UHGV virus genome: UHGV-0208829
Reading direction: 5' to 3' (one strand)
DNA: 62,541 nt
Source: a virus
Positions 21,647-40,831 of the stretch are shown in pieces (the stretch's first letter is position 1; every line of letters starts with the position of its first letter). A program made the position numbers and the translations under genes. The notes below the pieces were generated by a model. It ran no database searches. It saw only the letters and a list, made by a program, of their open reading frames with translations, and was not told the origin of the DNA.

Positions 21647-21665
21647 GGGTGGGAGCGACCCACCC
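21647..21665 (-). promoter_or_regulatory. hairpin between co-directional genes just 5' of RBS
   Basis: Stem gggtggg/cccaccc, loop agcga. Confidence 0.3.
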
Positions 21666-21672
21666 CTCGAGA

Positions 21673-24600
21673 TTATTTAAGTGTCGCGGGTAAATCAGGC
21701 ACAGCCTCCCCATCGAGTATACGCCCGATGAGAATCCCGGCTTGTTCACCTACAGCATTCGCGGTACCGATACGTTGGATTGAACCTACGATACGCGCAT
21801 CGACGGAATCACGACCGAACAACACGTCCAGGTCATCGCCATCCTCTGTTTTGTTGTCGCCGTACATGACTTCTTGTACGGTGGTTTTTAGCTGGTTAGC
21901 AATAACCATCTTATCCGCAGCGGCCATCTCAACGTCGTGTGTAATAAAGAATCGAACACAAAGTGAGTTAAAGGCCAAGGGTACACCTTCAACACGGTAG
22001 TCGCCGTTTACACTGCCTGAAACCGGATCACCGCGTCCGACTGCCAGTGCGGCTTTACGACGAATTCTGTCGTATTTACGCACCAGTTCAGCAAGACTTG
22101 GCGTCATGTCTTCGGTTTCACCGTGATACACCACTTCGATTTTATCCACGATACCACGTACCCCTGCACGAGGTGCGTACGAACTTAAACTTTGCAACGT
22201 TGCGGCTGCTTCCTGACTAAAGGCACTCATATCTCCCGTCAAGTCGTCAGTAAACGTGCATAGGATTGTATCGACGTCTACGTGGTCGCCTTCATTCACG
22301 ATTTCCAAAAGCATCTGGTTGCTGTTAATCGTCACTTCTTTCAGCTTTGTTACCTGCCCCACCATTTTCTTCGCGAACCGTTCAGAAATTGCGTTGGAGT
22401 CTTCGATAACTTCTTCAGCTTCTAATAAAGCAACGGTGGCCAGCACCCCGTTTTTCCAGGAAACCTGAGTAGGATCGTAAATATCAGGTTCAAAGTGTTG
22501 CTCGTTGTACGTAATCACTGCCCCGGCCGGGAGCTTGTCACCGGCTTTCCAGCGTGTTACCAAGGTGTGCGGATAGAAGGTACCTTCGTGGGGGCCGAAC
22601 CAGCGCCCTAGAGGAAAGGCTTCTTTACTTCCATCTTCGTACGTAATTTCAATGTGGTCTTTCGACAGACCAGTAATCTTACCTGCTTTATCAATAACGC
22701 GTGCATGTTTCACCGAAGTACGGTGAGCGACGAATTTCTCCTGTTCAGTACGATACGGGGTTGTGGTTGCCCCATTACAACTGGTGGCAGAACCTAACTG
22801 AATCCCAACGAAGTTTTGACGTTTTGCATCGTCCATTAAGGTATCGGGTACTAACCCGTCAATAAACGAAAGGGTATCGCTTGGTTTCGGGGTTTTCTCT
22901 TCACGCTTAAACGTGGTACCGTCAACGGTGTCAAAACGTGGGTTATTGGTGACGAAAGCAGTAATCCCTACGTCGCCGTTATCTACGGTGTTACCCGAGA
23001 CTATCCCGATATCACTGGGTTGGAACTCACGCGTGTGGTAGACCATCGTTTTACGATTACGACCACCTGTACCCCCCATCGTAATAACGTCTTTTTCTTT
23101 AATTGACTGGATAGGGTTAGCGCCTGGTGCCAAAAGTACCGACGGGTCGGAGTTAATTGCACCCCAAACCATGTCTTGCGTCAGTTCGAACTTACGGTTA
23201 CTACCCGGTGCGTTATTGTAGTTACGCATCGCTCTGACCATCGCAGTATAGATGTGGTAGGCAATCCTCTGATTTCCTAAGAACATCATTTCGTCGCCGT
23301 TAATCTCTGGTAAAGAGTGGTCAGTTTGTAACAGTTCGTTAGAACGTTCCAGCAAGCCAATAAAGGTTTCCGGCTCACCCATTTTCCTGAGGATACGTGC
23401 GTGCATGTCGTCAACAAACGCGGACCGCATCTGTTTCAGCTCGTTGATGTACCGTGGTGTTAGGCCATCTGCTTCACGTAATAAGTTCAGGTAAATGTCT
23501 TCGCGGTCTGCTTCTGATTCGGTATAAGCAACCAGGTGTTTGAGATAGCGATCCAAACCATGCAGAATCATCCTCTGCTGATCGTTATCGCAAGTAACTA
23601 AAAGTTTACAGTCTTGTAGTCGAATAATACTGTCGTAGGCATTCTTATCAACACGCTGACCTGTAGGAACCAACTCGTACTGGATACCGAAATGTTTCAA
23701 CATTCCCTGGAGTCCAAGATAGAACGAGAAGATAAAACCAAGCGACAAAGATTTACCCATCAAAGACAGCTCGGTCATTTCGCGAGGCACTTTCTGGTTA
23801 TTAAAGCCCAGTACCTCTGCGATAGTTCCCACCGGTTCAACTTTGTTTCCGTTCACACCGTAAAGCATGGATTTGTCATCCATTGCCAGGATTGTTTCAC
23901 TACGCGGACGTTTCGCCACTGGTAAAAGTTTGGCAGCATCGGCGTCTCTGAGTTGCTCGTCGTTAAAGAAGTTAACGGCTTCTTTGTAGTCGAAGTTCCA
24001 CATATAGCCATTCGCATTAAAGCTGGCAATACGACGTGCAATCTCCGTATACTGACGAGGCAGATGTTGCGTAGGATCGAACACATTTGCTAAACGTGCA
24101 TCGGTGACTTCGGTGTTTGTCGGGTCAACAGCGCGTGTGATGATCGCGTTGGTTAACCAACGACCGTAATCGTTCGCGACCTTATCACTACGACGGACAA
24201 AGTTTTTACCGTAAGCGGTAGTCAGTGCGACAGTATCCGGTGCAACTTTACGAATCGGTAAGTCCACACGTTGCCGACGCATGGTGTATTCGACACCATT
24301 AGCGACCCAAGTACCGTCCTCGGTCAAGCCTGGGATAGAGAAGCGAACGGTTGTTGGCTCACCACCGACTGGCTGAACACGTAAAGTGTGGTGCTCGATA
24401 GTTCCTGTAACAGAAACTTCTTTTTCCACCGTGTGGTTGTGAACCGCCAGACCCAAACGTTGTGAACTGGCGACCGCCGCCAGTACGTCTTTGGTCATCA
24501 TGGTCTGGTTGTATTGTTTCACCATCTGGTCGGTGACGTTCTCTGCCCACCCTTCATCGGTAACAAGCCGCTGAACTTTTTTCGGTTCGGCTTTAACGAC

Positions 24601-25839
24601 AATATCTTTCTCGTGAACAGTCAGTGCTTCCCCGTAGGTTTCTTTCGGGTTATACGGGTTAGGTAGCTGAACGAAACGTTTAGACGATTCTGACAGGAAC
24701 TGATACGCTTTAGAACTTAAGCGGCCCGCTTCAGCTAAGCGTTGTGCTTCCTGTTTAATAATCTCGTCATGCGGAATGACTTTCTCGACGACGATAGTCG
24801 TCGGTTTGACGTCTTCCTTCGGTTCTTCAATAACGACGTCTTCTTTTTCATCGAAGGTGTTATCGGATTCCACCACAGCGTCATTAACAACGTCGTCATC
24901 GTCGACAACATCAACGGTTTCTTCTTCGACGTCTTTAAGGAAAACACGCTCGTCGCCTTCAGGCGTTAGGAATTCCGCTTCGTACGCGTTAGACGGTGCT
25001 TGTGTCATTACACGCACCAGCGTACGGTAGAACATCCTGGCCATTTGGTCGTCACTTAAACGACCGCCGGACGACTTACGCATTTTCTCTACAACACCCA
25101 TGTTCATGGACGTGAAGCCCGTGTTGTGGGTGAAGATAAAGTTCATTCGTGACAGCTGAGTTAAATCCATTCCCGAGAATAAGGAATCGGATTGTTTTCC
25201 ATAAGCCCAAGCAAACAACTCCAATAGCCACAGCAAGTTGAAGTCCTGGAACTTCTCAATCTTGCTCTTAACGCGGTCGTTATAGGTTGTTTGAAACTTC
25301 TGGAACGAAGGTAGAGTCGAACCCAGTTCAATAACGAAATAGTTCTGACGCATGTATTCTTGCGTGTCGTATTTGAACTGGTTAATCATCAACAGTTGGA
25401 TGTTACGCAGTCTATCGTACCAGGCTAACTGGGTGTCAGGATAGTAATAGTGCGATAGCATCGGTGTGTAGTTCTCGACCAGGAGAACTTTTAAGTCTTT
25501 GCGAACCAGATCGTCTGAGGTAAGACGACGCATCGGGCGGTTTGCACGGTGGTAGGCAAAGATAGCACGTTCTTGCCCCTGAACAGGTTTGTTGCGAGGA
25601 TGGCCGCTAATACCGTCTTCCGGTAATTTAAAGTGGTGACGAACCTGTGCAGGTTTTTCTAACGGTTGAATAATCTCGAGTGTTGCAGGTGGCGCTAATA
25701 CCACCTGGTCGAGATCAATGACATGGAGTACAGAACCACGTGGTATCTGTAGCTTCTCGAGCGGGATAATCCTCGGATTACCAAACTCGTCAGTTTTACG
25801 CACCGAGAAGCGTTGGTTAAACTGTTTAATGAGCAGCAT
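21673..25839 (-). CDS. very large protein (1388 aa) immediately downstream of RNAP beta-prime-like gene; possible RNAP partner subunit
   Basis: ATG start 9 nt after upstream stop; acidic low-complexity linker; only weak RNAP-like matches, so function unassigned. Confidence 0.55.
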   Translation of the reverse strand: MLLIKQFNQRFSVRKTDEFGNPRIIPLEKLQIPRGSVLHVIDLDQVVLAPPATLEIIQPLEKPAQVRHHFKLPEDGISGHPRNKPVQGQERAIFAYHRANRPMRRLTSDDLVRKDLKVLLVENYTPMLSHYYYPDTQLAWYDRLRNIQLLMINQFKYDTQEYMRQNYFVIELGSTLPSFQKFQTTYNDRVKSKIEKFQDFNLLWLLELFAWAYGKQSDSLFSGMDLTQLSRMNFIFTHNTGFTSMNMGVVEKMRKSSGGRLSDDQMARMFYRTLVRVMTQAPSNAYEAEFLTPEGDERVFLKDVEEETVDVVDDDDVVNDAVVESDNTFDEKEDVVIEEPKEDVKPTTIVVEKVIPHDEIIKQEAQRLAEAGRLSSKAYQFLSESSKRFVQLPNPYNPKETYGEALTVHEKDIVVKAEPKKVQRLVTDEGWAENVTDQMVKQYNQTMMTKDVLAAVASSQRLGLAVHNHTVEKEVSVTGTIEHHTLRVQPVGGEPTTVRFSIPGLTEDGTWVANGVEYTMRRQRVDLPIRKVAPDTVALTTAYGKNFVRRSDKVANDYGRWLTNAIITRAVDPTNTEVTDARLANVFDPTQHLPRQYTEIARRIASFNANGYMWNFDYKEAVNFFNDEQLRDADAAKLLPVAKRPRSETILAMDDKSMLYGVNGNKVEPVGTIAEVLGFNNQKVPREMTELSLMGKSLSLGFIFSFYLGLQGMLKHFGIQYELVPTGQRVDKNAYDSIIRLQDCKLLVTCDNDQQRMILHGLDRYLKHLVAYTESEADREDIYLNLLREADGLTPRYINELKQMRSAFVDDMHARILRKMGEPETFIGLLERSNELLQTDHSLPEINGDEMMFLGNQRIAYHIYTAMVRAMRNYNNAPGSNRKFELTQDMVWGAINSDPSVLLAPGANPIQSIKEKDVITMGGTGGRNRKTMVYHTREFQPSDIGIVSGNTVDNGDVGITAFVTNNPRFDTVDGTTFKREEKTPKPSDTLSFIDGLVPDTLMDDAKRQNFVGIQLGSATSCNGATTTPYRTEQEKFVAHRTSVKHARVIDKAGKITGLSKDHIEITYEDGSKEAFPLGRWFGPHEGTFYPHTLVTRWKAGDKLPAGAVITYNEQHFEPDIYDPTQVSWKNGVLATVALLEAEEVIEDSNAISERFAKKMVGQVTKLKEVTINSNQMLLEIVNEGDHVDVDTILCTFTDDLTGDMSAFSQEAAATLQSLSSYAPRAGVRGIVDKIEVVYHGETEDMTPSLAELVRKYDRIRRKAALAVGRGDPVSGSVNGDYRVEGVPLAFNSLCVRFFITHDVEMAAADKMVIANQLKTTVQEVMYGDNKTEDGDDLDVLFGRDSVDARIVGSIQRIGTANAVGEQAGILIGRILDGEAVPDLPATLK

Positions 25840-25848
25840 TGCTTAGCC

Positions 25849-27468
25849 TTATGGGTTCTTTAATAACGCTTGCGTTGCACGTTTAATCACGTTGTTGATA
25901 GGATTGATTTTAAAGTTCCCATCAGAATCGAACCAGTAGTTTTTCGAGTGTATCCAATTCCGGTTTTCCTCGAGTGCTTCCTGGGACATAGGCGCGTTAA
26001 ACGACCCGGTATCGCCGTCGTAGTCACCCCCTAAGCCACCTAAGCGTGAAGGGTGTGGTGCCATCGACTCAACGAAGGTAGGAACCGACCGGTCAGGGTA
26101 GCTGATAGCCCCTCGGGGTTTTTCAGTTTCCCAGTCATCTTCCAGTTCTTTTAAGTATAAAGATGACGTGGTGGTCTCCAATCTTATGGTCGATGAATAC
26201 GTCGAGCCTCGGCCTGTAACGGGATAACGTGTAACGAAACCGAAATAATCGTTCCAAAGTTCGTAGCCCGACAAATAAAGCAATTCGACGAGTGTCATAC
26301 CGTGGACGAATTTTCGGTCAAACGTTTTAGGAAGTTCTTCAATATCGTAGAACACCTTAAAATGTTTGGTGTCTTGGTAAACCAACGCAACGTAGTGGGT
26401 GTCGTCCAACATAATCGGCTGATGGCGAAGCTCGCGAGCTTCCATTCGGTTGATTAAGGATTCAATCCCATCGTCGGTGGTGAATGTGTCGTATACACGA
26501 CCACCTACTTCCAAGAATTCACGTTTAAGGGTTTTGGTGTTTACGCCGTAAAGGTTGCCGTCACCAGCACGGATGTTACCGAGGTAACGTTCACGTATCT
26601 GGTATTGCGCAACGGGGAGTAATGCTTTTAAACCCTGGTATAAACCAATTTTGGTGTCGGTGGGACGAATAGCGTCTTCACGACCCATGCACTTAGACCC
26701 CGTCGAGAACGAGGACAGTACGTTACGTGTCCCGTTCATTAATTTACGAGACGTCACTTTACGACGTTGGAAACCCCCTTTACCGTCTTGGATGTTAAAG
26801 AAATACATCCAGATATCGTTGAAGGTTTGTTGCAGCTTCCAGCGTACGGGGTTAGTTAATTCAACACGGGTTGCTCGGTCAGGGATCGCCCTGGCGAGTG
26901 ATACCAACCGACGATACATCCCGCCGATTTCTTCTTCCTGTTCTCTACCATCTTGTCGAATTACTAAATCGCGTAAACCCGCGGGTAACACGAGAACGTA
27001 TCGACTAAGACTAACGGGACGGAATTTCAAAAAGAAATCCACGGTTTCGTCACGTTGTAGAGACTCGTTACGCTTAGGTTTTAAATCGTTATAGTGACTG
27101 AGGAAGAAGTTAAAACCGGTATCTGCGCCTGGGTCTCCCGGCAAGGCCGGTTCGAAATCTTTTTCTTTTTCGCTCCACGTTGCGTAGCGTTTTCCAGAAC
27201 AAATTTCTTCGTAGAGTTGTTTGAGTTGGAATAACGCCAAACACACCGTCGGCGAAATGATATCGAGTTTAATATCGATATAAGAGAAAGTAGAGTCTCG
27301 CGCTTCACTCCCCGTGAGTCCAAATATCTCTGTAGAGTAAAGACCTTCGGGGTGAAAGTTTTTTGTTAACCCCTGGAAAGTATCCGTGGTCGTGACGGGT
27401 CGTAATCGCGACACAAGAGACTTGTTTACATTGAGCAGATAAAAGTCAACCCAATTAAGTTTATTCAC
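25849..27468 (-). CDS. multisubunit RNA polymerase beta-prime-like subunit, N-terminal split fragment
   Basis: 539 aa; YVLVLPAGLRDLV...IGGMYRRL (region B-like), GKGGFQRRKV (region C-like), catalytic GDYDGD at 26011-26025 near C-terminus; GTG start with AGGAG 8 nt upstream. Confidence 0.65.
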   Translation of the reverse strand: MNKLNWVDFYLLNVNKSLVSRLRPVTTTDTFQGLTKNFHPEGLYSTEIFGLTGSEARDSTFSYIDIKLDIISPTVCLALFQLKQLYEEICSGKRYATWSEKEKDFEPALPGDPGADTGFNFFLSHYNDLKPKRNESLQRDETVDFFLKFRPVSLSRYVLVLPAGLRDLVIRQDGREQEEEIGGMYRRLVSLARAIPDRATRVELTNPVRWKLQQTFNDIWMYFFNIQDGKGGFQRRKVTSRKLMNGTRNVLSSFSTGSKCMGREDAIRPTDTKIGLYQGLKALLPVAQYQIRERYLGNIRAGDGNLYGVNTKTLKREFLEVGGRVYDTFTTDDGIESLINRMEARELRHQPIMLDDTHYVALVYQDTKHFKVFYDIEELPKTFDRKFVHGMTLVELLYLSGYELWNDYFGFVTRYPVTGRGSTYSSTIRLETTTSSLYLKELEDDWETEKPRGAISYPDRSVPTFVESMAPHPSRLGGLGGDYDGDTGSFNAPMSQEALEENRNWIHSKNYWFDSDGNFKINPINNVIKRATQALLKNP

Positions 27469-27497
27469 GCTAAATCTCCTGATACGGATTAAACGTT

Positions 27498-30400
27498 ATG
27501 GCTAAAAAAGGTAAAGATGATTTCGATGAAATCGATCTTGATAACATGGACGACTGGGACGATTTTGATGAGCCCCCTCGTCAACAAGACCAATCGCGTA
27601 ACCCGGTCATGGACACATTTCGTGCTGCCCGTAAGTCGGCGTTGTCGACTATCTGGCCCGAAAACAAACGTGATCAGGTTATTTTAAAAGGGATGCCTAA
27701 ACCTGCGGCAGAAGCCTACGAAGGCTATCAAAACGTTAAAGCTGCAGGTCAAGACATTCTGGCCCATACGAAAGACGAGATTGAAAAGACGTCTCGCGTC
27801 GTTAAGATGCAAGCGAGACAGTTAGGCCCAACACTGAAACGGTATTTACCGGAATCCGTAACACGGAAAATCGACAAGTGGGCACGTAACGATCAAATCG
27901 ACTATGGGAATTACGATCCTAAACAAGCGATGATGGATCGTGAGCTGGACAGCGTGTTCTCAGGTGCACCGCAAACGGCGGACCAGCAACGCGAAACGCA
28001 AGAAGGGATGGTTGAAGACCGCTTGCGTGACACGATTAAGGACATGAAGTCCGACGCACTGTTCCAGACAGTAATCGGTATTGCAAAAGACGTCAACTTA
28101 ACGACTAGCTTAAGTCGTGGCGTGTTGTTGAATGTTCAGCGTAAGCAGTTAGAGCTGCAATACCGGACATTGTTTGCTTTGCAGGATATTGCGAAACTCA
28201 AACAAGACGAGTTTGCACGCAATACACCGGCATTAGAAGCCATCGTTAAGAACACAGCACTGCCAGACTACGCGAAGGAAGAGTTTTCTGAAATTCGTTG
28301 GGCTAATGTAAAACGTAAAGCTGCGGAGTGGATGAACCCCTTACACTACGCAGATAATTTCATTGGTCAGATTCGCGAAAACGCGAAGAAGAAAATCTCG
28401 AACATCTTTAGTGATGGTCGTGGGATTCTAGAACAAGTTCTAGGGATGGCTCAGGAAGATGACTTTGACATGTCGGACAGCTCATCGTTGTCTCCTGACC
28501 GTCGTAACACAAACTCGCGTAATAAAGCGGCAGGTTTTGCAGGTGGGTGGGTCGCAAAACGTCTCTTACAACCCCAGATCGAACGTCTTCAGAACTGGAC
28601 CCGTGGCGAGTTAGAGAAAAACCCAGAAGTCATGAAACGCCTACAGTTGGCGAAGTATGGCTTTGGAAATTTGTCGTCTATTTCTAACTCGGCAATAGCA
28701 GGAGAAACAAGCGGTCCGTTAGCTGATCTGTTTCGACTAATGCACGAGTTGGGGTTAGTTAACCCGCTACGTCGCGAAACCTTAGCATTAGACGATCGTT
28801 CTGCGGAATCTCTTTCTGCCGCGGCGAAATTCGATCGTAAAGCTTACCTTAGTATCACCGAAGTTATTCCGACGTTACTGTCCGAGATTAACAAATCTAT
28901 TCGTCGTGGGTATGGCGAACACCACGATCAGGTTTATGACCTGACCACGCGCGGCATGGTGGATCGCAAAGTTATTGGTAATCGCGTACGTAAGGCCGTT
29001 GCTAATGACGATCAGCGCAAACGTTTACAGACGTACATCAACGACACTGTCGACTTTATCGATAAAGATAAAACGCTCGATAGGAAAACACGTCAAGCGT
29101 TAGCGGACTACATCGAATCTCGTGCCTCAGAAGGGAAAGCGTTCGATGTAGGGTCTTTATTGAAAGACCCGATGCACATGTATCGGTACATGAACGCAAA
29201 CGCTGTGGAAGCGATTCAGGGTATTTTAGAAACCCGTTCTGCGGAACTGGTTGGCGGTCACCATGAACTGAGTAATGCGATTTCAAACAAAATCGCCGCT
29301 ATTCAGTCAACGATTCGTGCACGTCAAGACACGGTTGATGCTGCGTCTGTGATTTACGGCGAGAACGCACTTCGCGATTCCGGTATTTTTAAATACGATG
29401 CGAAGAACGACATTTTCGAAGTCGATAAGGACATTAACGATCCCTATACGCTATTTAACGACCTGTCGATGGGTAAGACCCGTTCTGGCCGTTCGTTAAC
29501 CCGTGAGCAAGAGATTCAACGTAAGCTGCAAAATGGTTCTGCGTTGGGTGATTACTTGCGTCGGATGGGTGCAGGAGCAGAGCCGAGCTTTGAAGACAAA
29601 GAACTGTCCAACGTACGTGGTGGTGGAAAAGGTGGTCGCGGTCGTGGTTTAAGCGCCCGTCAACTCGCTGCGGTACTTTATGGAGAGAAATCTACCAACT
29701 TTGTTGAGCTCTTAAGCAACCGTCCAGATACGAACGCTGGGCTGGAACAACAGTTCGATCGATTGATTGATGCGGTACGTAAACAGTCCGAATCTAGCAC
29801 CGTGCAAGATATCCTCAAACACGTTAAGAACATGGATGAGGAAGGTATTCTTCTAGCCAGTTTAGGCGGTAGCCGTGATGACGGTGACGAACCTGAAAGT
29901 TCGAGTGAATCGGGCCGTAAACGTCGTCGTAAGCGCAAACGTATTGTACTAGGCGAGACAGGTTTGCTACGTCGCTGGGCTGGGGTGCTTTGGGATACCG
30001 GTTCTGGTGTAGGACGGTTTGGTAAGAATCTGTTCCTACGTGGGAAAGATCGCCTACAAGCATTAGGTGGTTTTATTCGCGGGAAATTCTCAGGCGGTTC
30101 CTCCGAAGGTCCCGGCGTATTTAGCCGACTGAAAGGGTTAGTAACCGGTACATTATCGACGGGTTGGAATTCTGCCGTAGCTTTCGGTAAAGGCGTTTTA
30201 GGCGTTCGCGACATCTACGATGAACGTGGTAACGTCGTATTACAAGGAAGTCGTTTAGAGGCTGGGGAATATTACCAGGCTGACCCGAAAACTGAGAAGC
30301 TGATTCAACTTAAAACTCTCGACGATATTAAACTGGGACGTGACATCGTCGACGAAGCGGGTAATTTAATCTTAGCGGCTGCTGATTTGGCTGCCGCAGG

Positions 30401-31010
30401 TAAACTGCGCTTCTACAAAGGCGGTAAAGTTCAAGCGCTTTTCCAGTACATTTCTGGGAAAGCAGGAACGGCGGTAAACAAAGCTGTGACTTTACCGAAG
30501 AAACTTCTGGGTTTCATTTCGCCTAAAGCGGCTTCGTTGTTCGAGAAAGCACGCGAGTGGTTAAATGAGGTTCCAGAGGGTGCAGAGAAAACCCGTTTAC
30601 AAAGCATGATTTCCCGCGTAACGGGAATGCCAGCTCGTCTGTGGAACAATGCAAAACGTGGGTTTGAGAAGCTCAAAGAGTTGGCTTCTGATAATCCGTT
30701 GACACGTTGGTGGCAGAACCGTAAGGAAGGGGGCTCTGGTGGTGGGTTTAGTGTGTTCTCGTGGTCGAATGGCCGTAAAACTAACCACATCCTAATCCGT
30801 ATCTACAAACTCCTTAACCGGAGATTGCCAGGTGAACCTGAAGATGACACCTGGACAGAACAGATGGAGCGGAATACAGGGGCCAGTTCAGTTAAAGGAT
30901 TATTCCAACGTGCTAAGGCCATACGCGATGGGTTCCGTGAACATTTTCAAGGTTTCCGGGTTTGCGTGGTCGGATGCGTGACAGAATGTCCCGTTACCGC
31001 AGTGCGGTAG
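27498..31010 (+). CDS. giant protein (1170 aa), probable virion-associated
   Basis: ATG start; acidic N-terminus, Gly/Arg-rich and polybasic RKRRRKRKR segments. Confidence 0.55.
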   Translation: MAKKGKDDFDEIDLDNMDDWDDFDEPPRQQDQSRNPVMDTFRAARKSALSTIWPENKRDQVILKGMPKPAAEAYEGYQNVKAAGQDILAHTKDEIEKTSRVVKMQARQLGPTLKRYLPESVTRKIDKWARNDQIDYGNYDPKQAMMDRELDSVFSGAPQTADQQRETQEGMVEDRLRDTIKDMKSDALFQTVIGIAKDVNLTTSLSRGVLLNVQRKQLELQYRTLFALQDIAKLKQDEFARNTPALEAIVKNTALPDYAKEEFSEIRWANVKRKAAEWMNPLHYADNFIGQIRENAKKKISNIFSDGRGILEQVLGMAQEDDFDMSDSSSLSPDRRNTNSRNKAAGFAGGWVAKRLLQPQIERLQNWTRGELEKNPEVMKRLQLAKYGFGNLSSISNSAIAGETSGPLADLFRLMHELGLVNPLRRETLALDDRSAESLSAAAKFDRKAYLSITEVIPTLLSEINKSIRRGYGEHHDQVYDLTTRGMVDRKVIGNRVRKAVANDDQRKRLQTYINDTVDFIDKDKTLDRKTRQALADYIESRASEGKAFDVGSLLKDPMHMYRYMNANAVEAIQGILETRSAELVGGHHELSNAISNKIAAIQSTIRARQDTVDAASVIYGENALRDSGIFKYDAKNDIFEVDKDINDPYTLFNDLSMGKTRSGRSLTREQEIQRKLQNGSALGDYLRRMGAGAEPSFEDKELSNVRGGGKGGRGRGLSARQLAAVLYGEKSTNFVELLSNRPDTNAGLEQQFDRLIDAVRKQSESSTVQDILKHVKNMDEEGILLASLGGSRDDGDEPESSSESGRKRRRKRKRIVLGETGLLRRWAGVLWDTGSGVGRFGKNLFLRGKDRLQALGGFIRGKFSGGSSEGPGVFSRLKGLVTGTLSTGWNSAVAFGKGVLGVRDIYDERGNVVLQGSRLEAGEYYQADPKTEKLIQLKTLDDIKLGRDIVDEAGNLILAAADLAAAGKLRFYKGGKVQALFQYISGKAGTAVNKAVTLPKKLLGFISPKAASLFEKAREWLNEVPEGAEKTRLQSMISRVTGMPARLWNNAKRGFEKLKELASDNPLTRWWQNRKEGGSGGGFSVFSWSNGRKTNHILIRIYKLLNRRLPGEPEDDTWTEQMERNTGASSVKGLFQRAKAIRDGFREHFQGFRVCVVGCVTECPVTAVR

Positions 31011-34000
31011 GTGGCCGTCTTTCTCGTTGGGGTGGTGCAGCACGTGATTGGTTTGACCGTTTCCGTGGCCGTGCAAGCGATATGGTCGATACCTTCCGTG
31101 ATCCGCGTTACGATATCGGAACACGTTATCGAATGGAGAGTCGTTTAGCAGGACGCGATGACGACGTTGCTGAGTTTTATCGTCAACACATCTACGCAAG
31201 AGGCAAGGTGTCTAAAACACGTATCATCGATGCGGCAAAAGAAGACTTAGATACCGTAACGGATAGCGCTGGACGTGTGATTAATAAAGGGAAACAGAAA
31301 GCCCGTAGCGTTGGGTCGGCTTTACTGGAACGCCTGAACAGAATGGTTAATCTTCAGGAAATGTCGTGGTTTAATACCATGCGCGATTCTGCGGAAAAAG
31401 CAGGTGCTTCGGATGGTTTGTTAAGAACCATGTTCAGTAAGTTCGGTCAACGTAACAAGCCACCTGCCAGTGATGAAAAACGCGATTACTTCCAGTTCTT
31501 CCGACGCCGTCGTCGTTCTAAGGAAGAGGAAAAGGCTAAGAAAGAGGCTGAGAAGAAAGGCGGTAAACGTGGGGTAATGGATTTCCTTAAAGGACTGCCG
31601 TTGGTAGGACCGATTGTGAGTATTTTAGGCACAGTGGGTTCAATCTTAGGTAAAGTCGCAAAATGGGGAATCTTTAAGCCGGTTGGGTTTGCAGGCAAAG
31701 CGTTGTGGAACGTTGGTAAATTTGCCGTAACCCGTTTGGCTGTTCCTGCGGTGAGTGCTGTCGCGACGGCAGCATCTGCAGTGGTAACTGCGGTTGGCTG
31801 GCCGATTATCGGTTTGGTTGCTGCAGGCGCTGCGTTGTCTTGGTTTGCGTATAAAACTGCAACCCGTGTGAATGCCCAGTATCTGGATAACATGCGATTG
31901 GCACAGTACGGATTTAGAGATCATGATGAGTGGTCTTCCGATGATGGTGCAAAAGCACGTTATTTAGAAGACAACTTGAAACCGTATATCTCTTATACAG
32001 AGAACGGTCAAGCACAGTTGCGTGGTTTGTCCGGTGACGACGTGAAGAAACTGGCCGAAGGGTTTGGTACTAACGTAGAAGACAAAGGCGAAATGCTGGC
32101 GTTTACTGCGTTTATGTTACAACGTTTTGTGCCGATCTATTTACGTTGGATTACAGCGTTACGTTCAATGGATAACGATATCGCGTTAGCTGATGTTGGT
32201 AATCCGTCGAAGGTATCAAAAGCAGACATGCTTACCATCTTTAACAAAATGAAGATGACAAAAGATGCGCCCGCTTTTAAATCGCTGACAGACCCCCGTA
32301 AAGTTAACCAAGGTTGGTTCTCTAAAGCGTGGGATTTCGTGACCTTCACACCGGCAGAATTTTTGTCAGGTGAAGAAGTTGTCGAAGCACAAGATCGTGT
32401 TTTCCGTTCGATCAACATGCGTCGTGATGATAAGCGTAAGGAAACAACTGGAGTCGGTGCTGTGCCTGAAGGACATAAGGTTGCTTCTGTGGCAGAATCT
32501 TCGCAGGTACTCGCGAAGAACGATACCGAGCGTAACGAAACTGTTGCTAAAGCTGAGGGTTGGGAAGACGGTACTGAACAGGTTCAAATTCAAGTTGACT
32601 GGAGAGTATTACCTGAGAAGAAAGATTTGGACGCGATGGAATCCGTCCGTTGGAAATCTTACGGTGTGAAATCTGTTAATGAGACAACACGTACCCTCTT
32701 TAGGTTGCTTGAGAAAGAAGTGTTGAAGGACACGGATATCAAAAATTGCATTTATAAGGGCGATTGGAAGAAAGCAATTTCTGCGATTGCGCCTGATGCA
32801 ATTGGCGGTCCAAAAGAGGAACGTTACAAGAACTGGTTCTATAATCGATTCTTACCTGTATTCATGACTTACGTTTATGGTGTAAAACGCTACGTACCTC
32901 ATGCCGATCCGTTGGATCTGAAACTCACAGGGGGGTTCCTCTATGAGCTGGCACTGATGATGCGTGGTGCTTACAACATGAAAGGGGGTATCCGACAGTC
33001 TGTGTGGGAAATCGCATTTAACCCGTTAGGGGGCGATGCGAATACCGATGCAGGTTCAGTGAGGGAAGAATTAGCAACGCTGAAAGAGTTGTCTAAAGAA
33101 CCCGATCTGGCTGTAAGGAATATGCTCAAAGAAACACCGAGCACGCCTAAGCGTATGACATGGAAATCGCCAGCGACAAACTCCAGTGTCCATCAGACGA
33201 ATGAAGATAGCAAAGAGCGTTATAAGGGAATTAACAGCTACGGCGAAGCTTCAAACGACGGCTACTTACCGAAGGGTGGCCAGTCCTACGGTACGCCAGG
33301 TGACCTATCACAAGTTGTTGGCGATATGGGTATAGGGAACTATGCGAAATACTCCACTGGACAATCGGGTATCACCCTCGGTGAGTTACAAGACGGTGAT
33401 TACAAGTCGTTAGTGACTAAATACCCAAGGGAAGTGCTCGGCAAACCGATGCAGTCAAATACTGAAGCCATCAAGTCATTGATTATTGACGCGGCAAACA
33501 TGGTGGGTATTCCGCCATCTGTTGCGATTGCAATGGCACAAGCAGAATCTGGCTTGCAGTATGGCAACTATCCTGGCGCATCCTCTGGCAGACCGAGAAG
33601 TAATAAGATGACTGCCGCTGGCCTGTTCCAATTCACCAACGGTACTTGGAACGGGGTTATGAAGCAATACGCCCGAAGATACGGTATCCCACAAACCGAT
33701 CAGTTCGACCCGTGGGCTAACGCAATCTTAGGTGTTAACTTCATTAGAGACAACATCAAGACCGCACAAAAGGATCTGGGTGGGATTGCCCCGCCACCGG
33801 CAGTAGCGTACCTATACCACTTCTTAGGTCCAGGTGGTGGTGCTGAGTTCCTTAAAGCCTGGAAAACCAATCCTAACGGCTCGCCCGACAAAGTGAAGTA
33901 CATTACACCTGCCGTTCTTAACGGTAACGAAGGTGTTTTCTACATCATGAACGGGAAGAAACGCGTTAGGATGCGTACGGTCGGCGAGGTTGTCGAGGAG

Positions 34001-34663
34001 CTGAACCGCCGTATGGGTGCGGTTGGAACTAACGAGATTGCAGCAAATCCTGCGTCTGCGAAAAACATGACAAAAGGGTTATCGCCAGTTCCATCGTCTC
34101 CTGCAATTGCTGCGGGCGCTGCTAACGATCCGTCTATTGCTGGACCGGCAGATAACCTGCCAGCCGCGAACGAGGCGAATCGTGACACCGCTTTAGCAGA
34201 CAAAGGTGCGATGGGTGCCGAAGATATTAAAGCTGCAACGGGTGGTGGTCCGGCTGTGCCGAGTCCTGGCGGCGACGTTACGCCGAGTGATGCGTCTGTC
34301 GTTGTAGAAACGGTGGGTAAAAATGCGCGTGCCGACGGCCTGGCCGAAGAGGAAGTTGCCAAAGTAAAAGAAGGTGCTAGACAGCAAATGGAGAAATCCG
34401 CACGTCCTGCACCAACGGTAACGTCTGATGCACAGACTGCGCCAACAGTGAACAGCGGCGATCCGATTAGCGTACAACAGCTGGCGGTTGCAAAAGAGTC
34501 TGCGGGCTATCTGAGAGAGATTGTTACAATTCTTCGTCAGCGGCCACAGGCTATGCAGCCATCCCCAGCGACCTCGGCAGCTTCTGCTCCGGGATCAGCA
34601 TCACGTAACATCGCGGTTGAACAACCTGCCCGCCAACTCGATGTTGGTCGTAAACGGGCGTAA
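30974..34663 (+). CDS. giant protein with lytic transglycosylase (SLT) domain and transmembrane segments
   Basis: First ATG at 30974 (track start 30962 is TTG); SLT motifs AMAQAESGLQ ... AAGLFQF ... AYLYHFLGPGG around 33430-33900; hydrophobic stretch; Ala/Pro-rich C-terminus. Confidence 0.6.
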   Translation: MRDRMSRYRSAVGGRLSRWGGAARDWFDRFRGRASDMVDTFRDPRYDIGTRYRMESRLAGRDDDVAEFYRQHIYARGKVSKTRIIDAAKEDLDTVTDSAGRVINKGKQKARSVGSALLERLNRMVNLQEMSWFNTMRDSAEKAGASDGLLRTMFSKFGQRNKPPASDEKRDYFQFFRRRRRSKEEEKAKKEAEKKGGKRGVMDFLKGLPLVGPIVSILGTVGSILGKVAKWGIFKPVGFAGKALWNVGKFAVTRLAVPAVSAVATAASAVVTAVGWPIIGLVAAGAALSWFAYKTATRVNAQYLDNMRLAQYGFRDHDEWSSDDGAKARYLEDNLKPYISYTENGQAQLRGLSGDDVKKLAEGFGTNVEDKGEMLAFTAFMLQRFVPIYLRWITALRSMDNDIALADVGNPSKVSKADMLTIFNKMKMTKDAPAFKSLTDPRKVNQGWFSKAWDFVTFTPAEFLSGEEVVEAQDRVFRSINMRRDDKRKETTGVGAVPEGHKVASVAESSQVLAKNDTERNETVAKAEGWEDGTEQVQIQVDWRVLPEKKDLDAMESVRWKSYGVKSVNETTRTLFRLLEKEVLKDTDIKNCIYKGDWKKAISAIAPDAIGGPKEERYKNWFYNRFLPVFMTYVYGVKRYVPHADPLDLKLTGGFLYELALMMRGAYNMKGGIRQSVWEIAFNPLGGDANTDAGSVREELATLKELSKEPDLAVRNMLKETPSTPKRMTWKSPATNSSVHQTNEDSKERYKGINSYGEASNDGYLPKGGQSYGTPGDLSQVVGDMGIGNYAKYSTGQSGITLGELQDGDYKSLVTKYPREVLGKPMQSNTEAIKSLIIDAANMVGIPPSVAIAMAQAESGLQYGNYPGASSGRPRSNKMTAAGLFQFTNGTWNGVMKQYARRYGIPQTDQFDPWANAILGVNFIRDNIKTAQKDLGGIAPPPAVAYLYHFLGPGGGAEFLKAWKTNPNGSPDKVKYITPAVLNGNEGVFYIMNGKKRVRMRTVGEVVEELNRRMGAVGTNEIAANPASAKNMTKGLSPVPSSPAIAAGAANDPSIAGPADNLPAANEANRDTALADKGAMGAEDIKAATGGGPAVPSPGGDVTPSDASVVVETVGKNARADGLAEEEVAKVKEGARQQMEKSARPAPTVTSDAQTAPTVNSGDPISVQQLAVAKESAGYLREIVTILRQRPQAMQPSPATSAASAPGSASRNIAVEQPARQLDVGRKRA

Positions 34664-34671
34664 CAGTAATC

Positions 34672-34700
34672 GGGGGTAGGTAACTACCCCCTACTTTTTT
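34672..34700 (+). terminator. intrinsic terminator
   Basis: Stem gggggtag/ctaccccc, loop gtaa, then T-run. Confidence 0.7.
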
Positions 34701-34711
34701 AGAGGTATAAA

Positions 34712-36883
34712 GTGGACGCTAGAACAGCTAACGACTCAAGCTGGGTCAAAAGCCTCTTTAACGGCGTGTTGGATGGCCGAGATGAACGTTTCCTGGCCTT
34801 GCGACGCTACTCCAACGGTATGTTATCGTTCGAGGACACCACGTTAGGTGGCAGTAAAGCGATTAACACACCACCCCAATTTACATGGTTTGCAGATCCG
34901 CCCTCGACTGGCGCATTTGCACAACCTGACAACCCGAGGGCCGAAACCAAAACATTCTCCAATAACCGAGAAACAGGTTCGTATAAACTCGGTACTTATT
35001 TCTACGAAAGCATTAATCAGAATTCGTTTTATGTTCACTGTCGGTTCGGTAAACCGAAATATCTGGGTATGGCCGCATTCTTTGCGAACATGTACGACTC
35101 CAACCTAGCGTACTTGGCCCGTACTGGTGACTATCCAGGTATGATGAGAACGATGGTTTCGTATTTAGGTGCAGCCGCAATATGGGCCACTGTAGGTACC
35201 GTTGCTTTTGCGGTTATTCTCATCACGCCACGAATTCTAAAAGCGGTGTTGAACAAACAAACATCGCGTTACTATTACGTCAAGCCAACGATGCATTTGT
35301 ATTTGCGTGCTGTGCAAAACATTCTAAATACGCAACTTATTTATCGTCGTTTGGTTCCCACAGGCGTGCTCGGTAATTTCAAACTACAAGAAAATACCGA
35401 CGATGGCACAAATTCATACAGCAATGATAAACAAGACTGGTATGCTTCGTTGCCTACTATCTGGAAAGATAACGGGGAGTTTGACGTTTATCGAATGATA
35501 AACCGCTATCAAACGTTAGCGAATTATCAGACCAAAGCCATAGAGCAAATGCGTGTTGAAAGCGGTGGAGATGAAGAAGCATTTGCAAGAAAACTACGTG
35601 CGTTTTATAACGAAGGGATGTACTCCAAACGCGTTATCAATGATGCGGGTAGTTTCGAAGTTTCGTTGCATGACTTAGAAATGGTCGCTCAAAAAGACAA
35701 CGCTTATAAAGCACCTTTTGAAGATATTAACGATCAGGAGTCTATGTTGGTTGAAGGGATCACTGGCACACTAACCGCTGGCGGTACCGCAGATGAAATT
35801 GATGCGAACACAAAGAAACTTCGAGAATCGATGGCAGCAAACATGGCTGCTGCGGAAAAAGCTGAAAGCGAAATCGGTGGTGAGGAAGTCCCTGATATAG
35901 CCAAGATACAAGAATGGGCAGATGCGGGTTCTAAAGAAAATGTAGGTACCTTCTTTAAAGATTTCGTCGAAATGGGTAAAAACTATATCGATGGTATTAA
36001 GGAAAATGCGCTTTCTGAAATCCGTAATGGTTCACAATGGGTATCGTGGCGTATCGATGCTAAAGACACGGTTTCTCGTTCGTTCTCTAACTCTACTAAA
36101 GAGCCAGAGATTTCTGGTACCGTTAACTCGTTAACCGCGAAAGCACGTTCGTTAGAAGTCAACTTATCCGGTGGTCAAACGGGTTTCAGCGCTGTAGATG
36201 CTTTAGTTTCCGGGATTAAGTCCGCGATGCGTGGCGTTGCCGACACCTTACATTTGACAGGGATCATGTCGTTGTACAATTCTTCGGTAATTGACTTTCC
36301 AGAAGTGTGGGACAGTTCGGATGCGTCGGGTGATGACATTACGTTAACGATACCGTTACGCTGTTGGTCTGGCAACGATTTGGATATCTTCCAAGACTTG
36401 CTCGTTCCACTGTCATTCTGGATCGCTGCGGTTTGTCCGCTGGCTACAGGTAAACAATCTTTTACTCACCCGTTCTATTTAGAGTGTTACTCACAAGGAC
36501 GCTTTTCTTTCCGTAATGCGATGGTGACGTCAATGTCATTGCAATTCGGTGTGGGTGGTTTAGGTTGGCGGCCAGGTGATTCCGTTCCGCTGTCTTGCGA
36601 TATCTCTGTTACTATTCGTGATTTGACTCGCGTTATGTACATGCCCATTGTTACCGACACAGGTGTGTGGGATGACGATAATAAATTCAGTGAATTTATG
36701 GCGTGTTTAGGCGGTGCTACGTTGTACGAGCGTACTAACGGTATTGCGCGTGCCAAGATTAATGCGAGCATCTGGGCACAAAACTGGGCATCCGCGTGGT
36801 CACAGGGTAGTTTTATTAACTCTGCACTGGATGTTATCCCAGCACGCCAGATCGCGAACATCTTCTTGCCGCAAGCACGTTAA
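34712..36883 (+). CDS. hypothetical protein (723 aa)
   Basis: GTG start with AGAGG 6 nt upstream. Confidence 0.55.
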   Translation: MDARTANDSSWVKSLFNGVLDGRDERFLALRRYSNGMLSFEDTTLGGSKAINTPPQFTWFADPPSTGAFAQPDNPRAETKTFSNNRETGSYKLGTYFYESINQNSFYVHCRFGKPKYLGMAAFFANMYDSNLAYLARTGDYPGMMRTMVSYLGAAAIWATVGTVAFAVILITPRILKAVLNKQTSRYYYVKPTMHLYLRAVQNILNTQLIYRRLVPTGVLGNFKLQENTDDGTNSYSNDKQDWYASLPTIWKDNGEFDVYRMINRYQTLANYQTKAIEQMRVESGGDEEAFARKLRAFYNEGMYSKRVINDAGSFEVSLHDLEMVAQKDNAYKAPFEDINDQESMLVEGITGTLTAGGTADEIDANTKKLRESMAANMAAAEKAESEIGGEEVPDIAKIQEWADAGSKENVGTFFKDFVEMGKNYIDGIKENALSEIRNGSQWVSWRIDAKDTVSRSFSNSTKEPEISGTVNSLTAKARSLEVNLSGGQTGFSAVDALVSGIKSAMRGVADTLHLTGIMSLYNSSVIDFPEVWDSSDASGDDITLTIPLRCWSGNDLDIFQDLLVPLSFWIAAVCPLATGKQSFTHPFYLECYSQGRFSFRNAMVTSMSLQFGVGGLGWRPGDSVPLSCDISVTIRDLTRVMYMPIVTDTGVWDDDNKFSEFMACLGGATLYERTNGIARAKINASIWAQNWASAWSQGSFINSALDVIPARQIANIFLPQAR

Positions 36884-36899
36884 TGTTTGAGAGGAAATA

Positions 36900-37463
36900 A
36901 TGGCTAATACGCTATTAGGTAAATCAGGAAAACAACTGGTTTATGAGTTATTAGTAAAAAAGAATCCTGGTTTGGTAGAGAAAGGTATTACAATCGATAA
37001 GTTGAATTTTGGTACACCGTCACATATTCCTGCGGTAGAAACACCAGAAACTCAATTTACACGATTAAATACCCAACTTAGCGTCCAGGGAATTATTGAA
37101 CAGAAAACGTTTGGTAAAATTGACGTTATTTATCGTCGTTTGGATTTAGAGCACCTCTTAGGTGACTTTGTAGTTTCTGTTGCGGGTGTTAATGCGGCTA
37201 CGGTATCTGAGGTACTACAGCTTTTCCGCAATAAGTACAATTTACAGATTACTGACGACGAAGTTGAGAACCCAACAGCTGCACCAGACAGCAAAGATAA
37301 AACCATCATTACCATGAATGGGACATCTTTGGCGTGGACAGGGCGGCTGGAGGTGTACTTAACAGAGCTACCGTCTGACGGTAAGGATATTTCGAAGTTG
37401 ATTAAAGTCACTGAACTTGACGGTTTGACGTATATCTCTTCTGGGATTGTTCCAGGCGCTTAA
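36900..37463 (+). CDS. hypothetical protein (187 aa)
   Basis: ATG with GAGAGGA upstream; terminator after stop. Confidence 0.55.
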   Translation: MANTLLGKSGKQLVYELLVKKNPGLVEKGITIDKLNFGTPSHIPAVETPETQFTRLNTQLSVQGIIEQKTFGKIDVIYRRLDLEHLLGDFVVSVAGVNAATVSEVLQLFRNKYNLQITDDEVENPTAAPDSKDKTIITMNGTSLAWTGRLEVYLTELPSDGKDISKLIKVTELDGLTYISSGIVPGA

Positions 37464-38422: not shown

Positions 38423-38785
38423 TTAAATTTTGCAAGCCCCGCCTGAACAGTTATCGTCTTCCGTAGTTGGGTCAGCACCCTTCTCTACGGTAGCTTCCGG
38501 GTCTAAGCCAGGGATTGCAAATTCATCAGTTTCTTTAACGGTTTCTACTTTAACTTCTTCAGACATTTTAGTTCCCAAATTTCTTACAAAGGGGTTAACA
38601 GTTTTGATTTTAAGGTTGGCAAATGGTGATAGTAGCATTGCCAACCGCGGTAGACTTGGCGGTGTCTCTTTATATTGTACAACGCGTACCTTCGACTTAC
38701 CAGGACCCTTACGTACACGGTTGTAGCCAATAAAATATACAGTACCTGTAAAGTATCTAAGGCTGTGAAATCGTGGTTTCTTCAT
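38423..38785 (-). CDS. small basic protein with acidic C-terminus (120 aa), paralog of 38782..38955
   Basis: ATG with AAGGAAG upstream; ATGA overlap with upstream ORF; shared motif R-x-RKGP-x-K. Confidence 0.45.
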   Translation of the reverse strand: MKKPRFHSLRYFTGTVYFIGYNRVRKGPGKSKVRVVQYKETPPSLPRLAMLLSPFANLKIKTVNPFVRNLGTKMSEEVKVETVKETDEFAIPGLDPEATVEKGADPTTEDDNCSGGACKI

Positions 38786-39450: not shown

Positions 39451-39747
39451 TTATACCGCGACAGGCGCAGCAATATGTGGTTGTGCTTGATATCCAACCA
39501 ATTCGAAGTCTTCGTATTTATAATCGAAGATAGAATCAGGTTTACGTTTGATAACCAGTTTAGGTAACGGATAAGGTTCACGGGTAAGCTGAAGTTTTGC
39601 TTGCTCCAGATGGTTAGAGTACAAATGGACGTCTACGCCACTGTAAACCAACTCGTCTGGAACCATGTTCAGTTGTTGAGCAACGATGTGTGTTAACAAC
39701 GCGTAAGAGGCGATGTTAAATGGCAAACCTAAGAATACGTCATTACT
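39451..39747 (-). CDS. thyA: thymidylate synthase, exon 2
   Basis: [18 protein letters not shown]...HLYSNH...PHIAAPVAV matches the ThyA C-terminal half; in frame with exon 1 after intron removal. Confidence 0.85.
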
Positions 39748-40831
39748 CATTACGTTCAGATGCGGTCGTTAGTCGCATCCCGCGCCATTACGCGCAGCTG
39801 CATGTCACCATGCAGATCGGACTATATCACCCTCTACAATGTAGAGGCTCTCCCGTTTCGAGAACACTTGTTCCCTACGAACAGTCACGTTCTAGTCTCT
39901 GGGCATTTATCTGACCATTTCCATGTGGCATACTTTGGATTTTTACTGTTTACTCTCCAGAGGACAACGGTTTTGTGTTTACCTAGCTGTCTTCCGGCCT
40001 CTGTAATACTTTCGTATTCGATGCCGTCAATGTTTACTGGTCTGCTGTTTGTGGGCTTGGTACCCATCATGCGTTCGGCAAGTTTACGTTTAGTCTCGTC
40101 AGAATGTTGTCTACCGTAAAAAGGATTTTTCTCTCCAACACGCTGTGAAGCAATGATGGATAACTTTCTACGTGTTTCCTCACTGCGTTTTATCCCGATG
40201 CACGGTGAGGTATTATGTTTATACCATTCTGCTAACTTCTCTCTAATTTTCTTCCTGGTTTCGGGAGTATGCGTGCGACCATACATGCCATTTGCCTTGC
40301 CGAATTTACCGTAAATTTTTTGACGTTCTTCCTTTGTCATTTTTGAGAATCTTCGATAGAGCGAGTTAGTCATTTTTTGAATAATCTCTGCCCTTCTTGG
40401 ATTCCTACTAATGCAGTCGTAACCGCATTCAATGTTAACAAACCCTTTTTCACTACTAATCATTTTCTGTTCGAGCTCTCGCGCCTTCGTTTTAGATGAA
40501 CAAGGCACGATAGTTGGGTTACCGTCGTATCTATATCCTTCATTCCAGATTTTCTGGAGTGTAAAGTTATGATGCGTACCTTTCTCTAACAGATTTAAAT
40601 GAATTTTGATACGCTCGTTGAAATCACGAGTCTCTCCGACGTAGCGAAAACGTTTTTCACCTTTTACGAAAGTAATAATGTAAACAACTGCCATAGGACC
40701 TCCTTTGTTTCATATTAAAAGGTTGTCCTAGAAATGGTTCGAATTTAGCAACGGGTTCTCTCCGTGGAGTTCTTCCCGTTTTAAGGAGAGTTTTTCGACT
40801 AAGGTCACCCTTAGAAGGCGCAGTTATGTTT
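39748..40831 (-). mobile_element. group I self-splicing intron (1084 nt) in thyA
   Basis: Exon 1 ends in U (CGU), intron ends in G (AAUG|AGU); R-like element CAGAGACUAGAAC (39889-39901) and S-like element GAUAUAGUCC (39819-39828) give P7 GACUA/UAGUC; splice restores KLSCFYMMR|SNDVFLGLP. Confidence 0.8.
39885..40694 (-). CDS. intron-encoded GIY-YIG homing endonuclease (I-TevI-like)
   Basis: VYIITF...RYVGET...LEKGTHHNFTLQKIWNEGY matches I-TevI catalytic domain; NUMOD-like repeats; C-terminal HTH-like region; AAGGAGG upstream of ATG. Confidence 0.85.
   Translation of the reverse strand: MAVVYIITFVKGEKRFRYVGETRDFNERIKIHLNLLEKGTHHNFTLQKIWNEGYRYDGNPTIVPCSSKTKARELEQKMISSEKGFVNIECGYDCISRNPRRAEIIQKMTNSLYRRFSKMTKEERQKIYGKFGKANGMYGRTHTPETRKKIREKLAEWYKHNTSPCIGIKRSEETRRKLSIIASQRVGEKNPFYGRQHSDETKRKLAERMMGTKPTNSRPVNIDGIEYESITEAGRQLGKHKTVVLWRVNSKNPKYATWKWSDKCPETRT

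Follow-up and report, generated by a model that had tools for sequence, protein, structure and literature searches.

Positions 27498–34663 on the plus strand of a 62,541-nucleotide phage sequence (UHGV virus genome UHGV-0208829; hereafter, the window) very probably hold one tape measure gene of an SPN3US/phiEaH2-like jumbo phage, a member of the phiKZ-related group, split by a private one-nucleotide deletion at 30960–30964. The gene as a whole encodes a tail tape measure protein that carries an SLT domain, and is a homologue of phiKZ gp181 and SPN3US gp239. Restoring one base gives a product of 2388 residues (approximately 264 kDa). The split is not an evolved overlap, a coupling device or a programmed frameshift.

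Two reading frames, one protein family

Both of the giant plus-strand frames reported in a preliminary description of this DNA are present: ORF1 (27498–31010; 1170 residues from an ATG), the amino-terminal half; and ORF2 (30962–34663; 1233 residues from a TTG or 1229 from the ATG at 30974), the carboxyl-terminal half. They overlap, as described there, by 49 nucleotides from the TTG or 37 from the ATG, with codon phases (0 and 2 mod 3, respectively) that place ORF2 in the −1 frame.

A megablast search of the gene against a phage collection returned only a 216-nucleotide patch of 77% identity, which is uninformative, and protein-level searches were therefore required. In these, the two frames cover phrog_3201 (2408 positions) collinearly, ORF1 matching 1–1024 (E=0) and ORF2 matching 1204–2406 (E=1.6e-282). 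Because both halves match the same family, the occurrence of two long collinear frames here is, on this sequence comparison, not chance. Residues 1–1148 and 1155–2380 of the phiEaH2 protein likewise map onto the ORF1 and ORF2 frames, respectively, and the more distant phiKZ gp181 aligns through residues 26–576 with ORF1 (E=2e-16) and 1366–2052 with ORF2 (E=3e-26).

The homologues are encoded by single reading frames: phiEaH2 gp159 (2382 residues); SPN3US_0239 (2372); Asesino gp261 (2379); and phiKZ gp181 (2237). Each of the 101 homologues at E≤1e-20 is a single protein, with lengths ranging from 1939 to 4026 residues. The closest database proteins are 96–99% identical to a reconstruction that fuses the two frames, and at 2387–2388 residues agree in length with the gene once its missing base is restored; among them, P0001 (2388 residues) matches the reconstruction at 97% and P0112 (2387) at 99.4%. 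The 90% cluster has 257 members; every one of the 12 listed at full length has 2387–2388 residues, shares 96.4–99.4% identity, and reads FQGFRDWRGRMRDRM straight across the junction. A split version of the gene was found neither among the 101 homologues nor among the full-length members listed from that cluster. That the gene here departs from the single-frame form of its family reflects a lesion in this one member, and is no evidence against homology. The preliminary description had framed the region as two overlapping genes, joined either by translational coupling or in a fused product; this framing is not supported, given the uniformly single homologues, the one-nucleotide deletion, and the absence of recoding signals.

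Both halves are covered in tblastn with phiEaH2 and SPN3US. Homology to the relatives stops in the ORF1 frame at 30926–30959 and begins in the ORF2 frame at 30962–30971. Native ORF1 sequence thus ends at about 30962, and the final 16 or so codons (VCVVGCVTECPVTAVR) are out-of-frame read-through, a Cys-rich tail whose counterpart is absent from relatives.

Tape measure proteins of related jumbo phages

SPN3US gp239 is named as a tail tape measure protein, of 259 kDa. Mass spectrometry finds it in the tails of virions (PMC5105663, PMC10052503), and particles without tails lack it or contain less of it (PMC5105663, PMC5694885, PMC10052503). The protein described here shares about 60% amino acid identity with gp239, is collinear over its full length, and belongs to the same PHROG 3201. 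It differs in that gp239 is an uninterrupted frame, whereas the copy in the window is one base short and appears as two frames; and in the Arg-rich linker at the junction, for which SPN3US has a different length and sequence. The mass spectrometry evidence concerns SPN3US gp239 only, and by analogy the present protein would also be located in the tail and may help to set its length.

The phiKZ gp181 protein is a virion-associated muralytic enzyme whose activity has been measured (reviewed in PMC5380687, citing Briers 2008), and has been proposed as a cell-puncturing or tape measure protein. Both halves of the split gene are collinear, distant homologues of gp181, in which the SLT-type domain is likewise proximal to the carboxyl terminus. 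The gp181 protein differs in being encoded by a single frame, and identity is only 21–25%. Homology, together with the literature on these relatives, thus predicts a tail-associated virion protein with a carboxyl-terminal SLT domain related to the muralytic domain of gp181, and the claim in the preliminary description of a virion-associated peptidoglycan-degrading or tape-measure-like protein is borne out by homology to both phiKZ gp181 and SPN3US gp239.

Much closer are jumbo-phage contigs of approximately 220–225 kb, from uncultured or contaminant sources (proteins P0112, P0109, P0113, P0103, and others; loci L003, L005, and L006), at 96.4–99.4% protein and 92–98% DNA identity. Their gene order is identical, but the extra base is present in them and the product is one protein of 2387–2388 residues.

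Gene order agrees throughout. Upstream of the split gene, and divergent from it, minus-strand genes at 21673–25839 and 25849–27468 match RNA polymerase beta-subunit PHROGs; downstream lie genes at 34712–36883 and 36900–37463. The same neighbourhood is common to phiEaH2, SPN3US, Asesino, and phiKZ: two divergent virion RNA polymerase beta-subunit genes upstream; and downstream, a gene for a protein of about 660–740 residues followed by a virion protein gene (about 185 residues). In SPN3US these flanking genes are gp240 and gp241 (the divergent polymerase subunits), and gp238 and gp237; phiKZ synteny is identical, with gp178, gp180, and gp182. Directly after the ORF2 stop codon, an intrinsic terminator-like hairpin (34672–34700, plus strand; 8 bp, 6 of them GC) is followed by a T-run, and no comparable signal is present between ORF1 and ORF2. 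(A terminator-like hairpin at 31004–31018 was discounted: it has only five pairs, and such sites are fewer in the region than expected from shuffling.)

Features of the carboxyl-terminal half

The four features that the preliminary description assigned to ORF2 all recur on closer analysis. Its amino terminus is Arg-rich, with Arg making up 25% of the first 60 residues compared with 6.8% overall. A long hydrophobic, membrane-span-like block occupies residues 207–292 (31592–31849, plus strand; Kyte-Doolittle 19-residue windows above 1.6). The last 209 residues (34034–34660, plus strand) form an Ala/Pro-rich tail, with 30% Ala plus Pro against 16% overall. Finally, residues 836–934 (33479–33775, plus strand) match the Pfam SLT lytic transglycosylase domain PF01464 at E=1e-8, the score of 35.2 bits lying above the curated cut-off of 21.3 bits.

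This SLT region also matches phrog_4067, annotated 'transglycosylase' (E=1.8e-21), and aligns to residues of about 1890–2050 in phiKZ gp181. The nearest solved structure is that of another phiKZ protein, the lytic transglycosylase gp144 (PDB 3BKH, E=1.9e-10; also 9XPS, E of about 2e-10). The Glu of the ORF2 motif AQAES (33545–33547), a putative catalytic residue, aligns with the Glu of the IES motif in both gp144 structures, which we take to be the catalytic residue of that enzyme. The likeness extends to this Glu-Ser motif; gp144, however, is a soluble endolysin of 260 residues with an amino-terminal peptidoglycan-binding domain, rather than one segment of a giant tail protein. By analogy with the gp181 domain, the ORF2 domain would be expected to cleave peptidoglycan.

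In the proposed mechanism, the tape measure protein, housed inside the tail tube, would exit upon sheath contraction; the SLT domain would then cleave peptidoglycan locally, and the hydrophobic block may assist in crossing the membrane.

The missing base

Re-examination of 30950–31010, as the preliminary description had proposed, reveals a one-nucleotide deletion relative to relatives at 30960–30964, where they read GGGATTGGCG and the window reads GGG-TTTGCG. Over the lesion site (30958–30965, plus strand) the window has CGGG-TTTGC whereas all four fetched relatives have CGGGATTGGC: the lesion comprises the deletion plus one substitution, at a place where relatives encode FQGFRDWRGRM. The gene spans 7166 nucleotides here compared with 7167 in L003, and the alignment of the two contains 558 mismatches and a single indel. 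Compared with L005 and L006, which are 97.7% identical over 26 kb, this is the sole frame-breaking indel in a conserved gene across 17498–37460. Viral, metagenome, and genome collections gave no match to the 25-mer that contains the deletion; the intact 26-mer is present in two IMG/VR contigs of approximately 220 kb. The junction region had no match in Escherichia coli complete genomes or in a search of plasmids.

The missing base is probably an assembly or sequencing error, an explanation favoured over a loss of function that arose very recently in the genome sampled. Around the deletion, a stretch of 45 nucleotides (30919–30963) contains four window-private changes, where about 0.18 are expected per 50 nucleotides. 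Of the three substitutions near the deletion, the one at 30919 is non-synonymous (D to A), and a second, by our reading of the junction, alters the Asp of RDW; every relative showing this stretch has Asp at both positions. Such a cluster suggests a consensus with poor local support.

A real knockout would be a sub-case of the same one-gene explanation, differing only in whether the deletion is biological or technical. It would mean a defective variant whose tape measure allele is null, such as one that co-infection maintains or that had only just mutated. The rest of the assembly is clean, which favours such a variant: among 67 Asesino open reading frames with matches in the window, the tape measure gene alone is frameshifted, so the assembly is not generally error-prone. 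(An apparent triple frameshift at 51663–52273, relative to an unannotated Asesino reading frame, proved to be the antisense shadow of homologues of gp236 and gp237.) The sequence context points the same way. Sequencing indels usually occur in long homopolymers, and the deletion lies outside any such run, none there exceeding four. Moreover, the downstream frame is undecayed, as a very recent event would leave it: window-private substitutions number 38 synonymous and 6 non-synonymous overall, and within ORF2 the bias is 13 to 1. Nevertheless, virions of the model relative contain this tail protein (PMC10052503), and a null allele of it would not be expected to prevail in the consensus of a population; the private, partly non-synonymous changes beside the deletion are also more like a problem of consensus quality. 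A genuine knockout is accordingly unlikely, while deserving serious consideration.

Could the two halves be expressed?

If the deletion were real and tolerated, two polypeptides might be made, ORF2 being translated by re-initiation or coupling at the ATG at 30974 or 30986, and both halves assembling in the tail. These codons lie 34 and 22 nucleotides, respectively, upstream of the ORF1 stop codon, and the anti-SD pairing energy at 30986 (−6.2 kcal/mol) is average-looking beside the median of −5.95 for real starts in the window. The break falls in the Arg-rich linker, which varies between genera; no other conserved gene in the window is frameshifted; and the 13:1 ratio in ORF2 is what purifying selection would produce. 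The same ratio, however, is equally expected of an artefact or of a deletion only days old. Both Met codons are conserved at internal positions in the intact relatives, and so are not evolved start sites. Moreover, the only 1170-residue entry is this very sequence, the split form being foreign to the homologues and the listed cluster members, and the deleted variant is missing from all three collections. Assembly of two separate polypeptides is therefore improbable. Likewise distinctly improbable is the broader proposition of a genuine deletion in a viable phage, which would live either on separate halves (from 30974 or 30986) or on −1 slippage, unprogrammed and at a low level, at T_TTT_C or T_TTC_CGG.

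The two frames might instead be fused by programmed −1 ribosomal frameshifting or by transcriptional slippage, with ORF1 alone as a shorter second product. The geometry is permissive: ORF2 is in the −1 frame, which is open from 30941, ahead of the ORF1 stop codon, and there are two single-tRNA re-pairing sites, T_TTT_C at 30944 and T_TTC_C at 30953. The next zero-frame codon at the latter is CGG, a rare codon in enterobacteria. The overlap nonetheless contains no in-phase X_XXY_YYZ slippery heptamer, and its sole GGGTTTG (30958) is a product of the deletion and lies out of phase. A stimulatory structure is also absent, the minimum free energy of 30960–31060 (−29.8 kcal/mol) being weaker than the shuffled mean (−33.7; z=+1.08), and no run of A or T is long enough for transcriptional slippage. 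Finally, the two-frame arrangement is not conserved, relatives all having single in-frame genes. Programmed fusion is thus most improbable, and a single gene broken by a private deletion remains the preferred reading.

Implications

The tape measure gene itself is already known, and the split frames provide no evidence of new biology. The result matters most for annotation. The exact ORF1 sequence, which a look-up in the contig index did not return, was found by cluster look-up in nr as DAO89065.1, 'MAG TPA: hypothetical protein [Caudoviricetes sp.]'; ORF2, from the ATG at 30974 or 30986, is absent from the collection searched. The window itself appears to derive from a viral MAG with third-party annotation. 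The deposited record thus apparently presents the amino-terminal half as a separate hypothetical protein. The two frames should be annotated together as one frameshifted gene for a tail tape measure/lytic transglycosylase protein, homologous to SPN3US gp239 and phiKZ gp181.

Should the deletion instead prove genuine in a viable phage, the amino- and carboxyl-terminal halves of the gp181/gp239 family would be separable modules, and the Arg-rich linker dispensable. A real and tolerated split would thereby offer modest insight into the modularity of giant tail proteins.

One gene in relatives, two reading frames in the window

Two large plus-strand ORFs overlap out of frame, as the preliminary description stated. 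ORF1 (27498-31010; 1170 aa, ATG start) and ORF2 (30962-34663; 1233 aa from a TTG, or 1229 aa from ATG 30974) share 49 nt with the TTG start and 37 nt with the ATG start. Codons begin at 0 mod 3 in ORF1 and at 2 mod 3 in ORF2, which therefore lies in the -1 frame; this frame is open from 30941.

Both ORFs match one PHROG family, phrog_3201, whose 2408-position profile carries the label 'tail fiber protein'; positions 1-1024 are covered by ORF1 and positions 1204-2406 by ORF2. The corresponding gene is a single ORF, with the same synteny, in four phages: Erwinia phages phiEaH2 (2382 aa) and Asesino (2379 aa); Salmonella phage SPN3US (SPN3US_0239; 2372 aa); and Pseudomonas phage phiKZ (gp181; 2237 aa). 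By tblastn, phiEaH2 residues 1-1148 align to 27498-30926 in the ORF1 frame, and residues 1155-2380 to 30965-34654 in the ORF2 frame. The phiKZ protein is likewise collinear (aa 26-576 with ORF1, E=2e-16; aa 1366-2052 with ORF2, E=3e-26).

Re-reading one base at 30959 fuses the ORFs into a protein of 2388 aa (about 264 kDa). Searched against 5.8 billion proteins, this reconstruction yields 101 matches at E<=1e-20, each of 1939-4026 aa; none is half-length. The best match, P0001, has exactly the same length (2388 aa) at 97% identity and belongs to a 90% cluster of 257 members; among those listed, 12 are full-length (2387-2388 aa, 96.4-99.4% identical to the reconstruction), and all 12 read ...FQGFRDWRGRMRDRMSRY... 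across the junction. Only one member has 1170 aa: ORF1 of the window itself (nr DAO89065.1, 'MAG TPA: hypothetical protein [Caudoviricetes sp.]'). This entry suggests that the window derives from a viral genome assembled from metagenomic data and annotated by a third party.

The DNA agrees. The gene spans 7166 nt in the window versus 7167 nt in L003, a related jumbo-phage locus, and the alignment (92.2% identity, 558 mismatches) contains one indel only. Relatives read CCGGGATTGGCGTGG at the junction, whereas the window reads CCGGG-TTTGCGTGG. In the comparison with two closer relatives (L005 and L006, sharing 97.7% identity over 26 kb), no other frame-breaking indel falls in a conserved gene across 17498-37460. 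The proposed re-check of 30950-31010 thus finds the window one base short, and the preliminary view of two overlapping genes, coupled or fused in translation, gives way to a single gene.

Several 2388-aa members of the P0001 cluster (EDU0148406.1, HCS5018577.1, EDP8995118.1, EGI8965146.1) come from contigs of ~221-225 kb that were submitted as isolate assemblies of Salmonella enterica or Escherichia coli. Entire genomes of this jumbo phage apparently accompany the sequencing of enterobacterial isolates, by carrier state or contamination. Complete E. coli genomes and PLSDB plasmids yielded no match.

Recoding, error, or mutation

Programmed frameshifting could in principle join the two frames, but it is rejected: the permissive interval (30941-31007) offers no X_XXY_YYZ heptamer in the phase of ORF1; the longest homopolymer is T4; folding of the 100 nt downstream is no stronger than that of shuffled sequence (z=+1.08); and no relative conserves the two-frame arrangement. 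The only GGGTTTG is out of phase and was created by the deletion. Recoding is most improbable. No internal promoter or convincing terminator was found between the ORFs; a strong hairpin with a T-run (34672-34700) follows the ORF2 stop codon.

The overlap is most probably an artefactual one-base lesion. Four points favor an artefact or else a lesion that arose very recently. First, window-private substitutions are 38 synonymous versus 6 non-synonymous overall, and 13 versus 1 within ORF2, so the downstream frame has not decayed. Second, the deletion-bearing 25-mer did not turn up in the IMG/VR, JGI metagenome, or GTDB genome collections, whereas the intact 26-mer is present in two ~220-kb viral contigs. 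Third, private changes cluster around the deletion: four within 45 nt, versus about 0.18 expected per 50 nt. One, at 30919, changes Asp to Ala; a second affects the Asp of RDW (by our reading of the junction). Relatives covering these two positions have Asp at each. Fourth, the homologue is a virion tail component in a model relative (PMC10052503), and a null allele would not be expected to become prevalent in a population.

Assembly or sequencing error is the probable source of the deletion, although the sequence elsewhere in the window is clean (among 67 Asesino ORFs with matches, this gene alone is frameshifted) and the deletion lies outside any long homopolymer. A real, recent knockout is unlikely, given the fourth point. 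Taken jointly, error and knockout, both of which posit a single gene whose 1-nt lesion is private and non-adaptive, very probably account for the arrangement. The ribosome-binding context of ATG 30986 looks average (-6.2 kcal/mol; real starts have a median of -5.95), which leaves a tolerated split into two proteins as an improbable reading.

The native protein

The features first described for ORF2 hold up: an Arg-rich amino terminus (25% in the first 60 residues versus 6.8% overall); a long hydrophobic block (aa 207-292; 31592-31849); an Ala/Pro-rich tail (30% versus 16% overall); and a Pfam SLT domain (aa 836-934; E=1e-8, 35.2 bits, cut-off 21.3). Among solved structures, the phiKZ gp144 lytic transglycosylase (3BKH/9XPS; E~2e-10) comes closest, and the Glu of its IES motif aligns with the Glu of AQAES.

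Homology to SPN3US gp239 and phiKZ gp181 likewise upholds the suggestion of a tape-measure-like, virion-associated protein, with peptidoglycan-degrading activity presumed for the window's domain. SPN3US gp239 is a 259-kDa 'tail tape measure protein', found in virions by mass spectrometry and depleted in, or missing from, particles that lack tails (PMC5105663, PMC5694885, PMC10052503). For phiKZ gp181, a virion-associated lysin assigned to the cell-puncturing end of the tail, muralytic activity has been measured (review PMC5380687, citing Briers et al. 2008).

The intact window protein would occupy the tail tube lumen and be expelled upon sheath contraction, whereupon the SLT domain (Glu at 33545-33547) would cut peptidoglycan locally. 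The hydrophobic block may then enter the membrane and help DNA pass, as proposed for other tape measure proteins.

Other features of the window

A second private cluster lies inside ORF1: four substitutions within 50 nt (28547-28574), of which one replaces Phe with Val and the other three are synonymous. Recombination with an unsampled lineage may have left this short tract.

The minus-strand thymidylate synthase gene (39454-41569) is split by a ~1.08-kb insertion (39749-40833) that L005 and L006 lack. Its coding pieces, 41569-40847 and 39747-39454, correspond to Asesino ThyA residues 4-239 and 245-342. Within the insertion, a 269-aa ORF (39885-40694) encodes an I-TevI-like homing endonuclease (GIY-YIG, NUMOD3, and I-TevI DNA-binding domains), and 39798-39984 shows weak similarity to Rfam group I introns, below threshold (22.7 bits versus a gathering score of 50; E=0.004). 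The insertion is probably a mobile group I intron, resembling the arrangement in the T4 td gene. Nearby, where the window has a single minus-strand 120-aa ORF (38423-38785), L005 and L006 have a pair of short ORFs that overlap (47 and 74 aa), owing to a 2-nt indel near 38565; a further 1-nt indel lies near 38357. Thus, small frame-changing indels also occur in this lineage's poorly conserved small-gene block.

The genes around ORF1 and ORF2 are ones usually seen in phiKZ-related jumbo phages: an S80 prohead protease gene (18293-19096); two divergent virion RNA polymerase beta-subunit genes upstream (21673-25839 and 25849-27468); and, downstream within 34712-37463, a 723-aa gene followed by one for a DUF7941-type 187-aa virion protein. 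Gene order in this conserved block (17654-27468 plus 34712-37463) follows phiKZ gp175-gp184.

The gene is of a known kind, with near-identical entries in databases; the useful outcome is a corrected annotation for 27498-34663.
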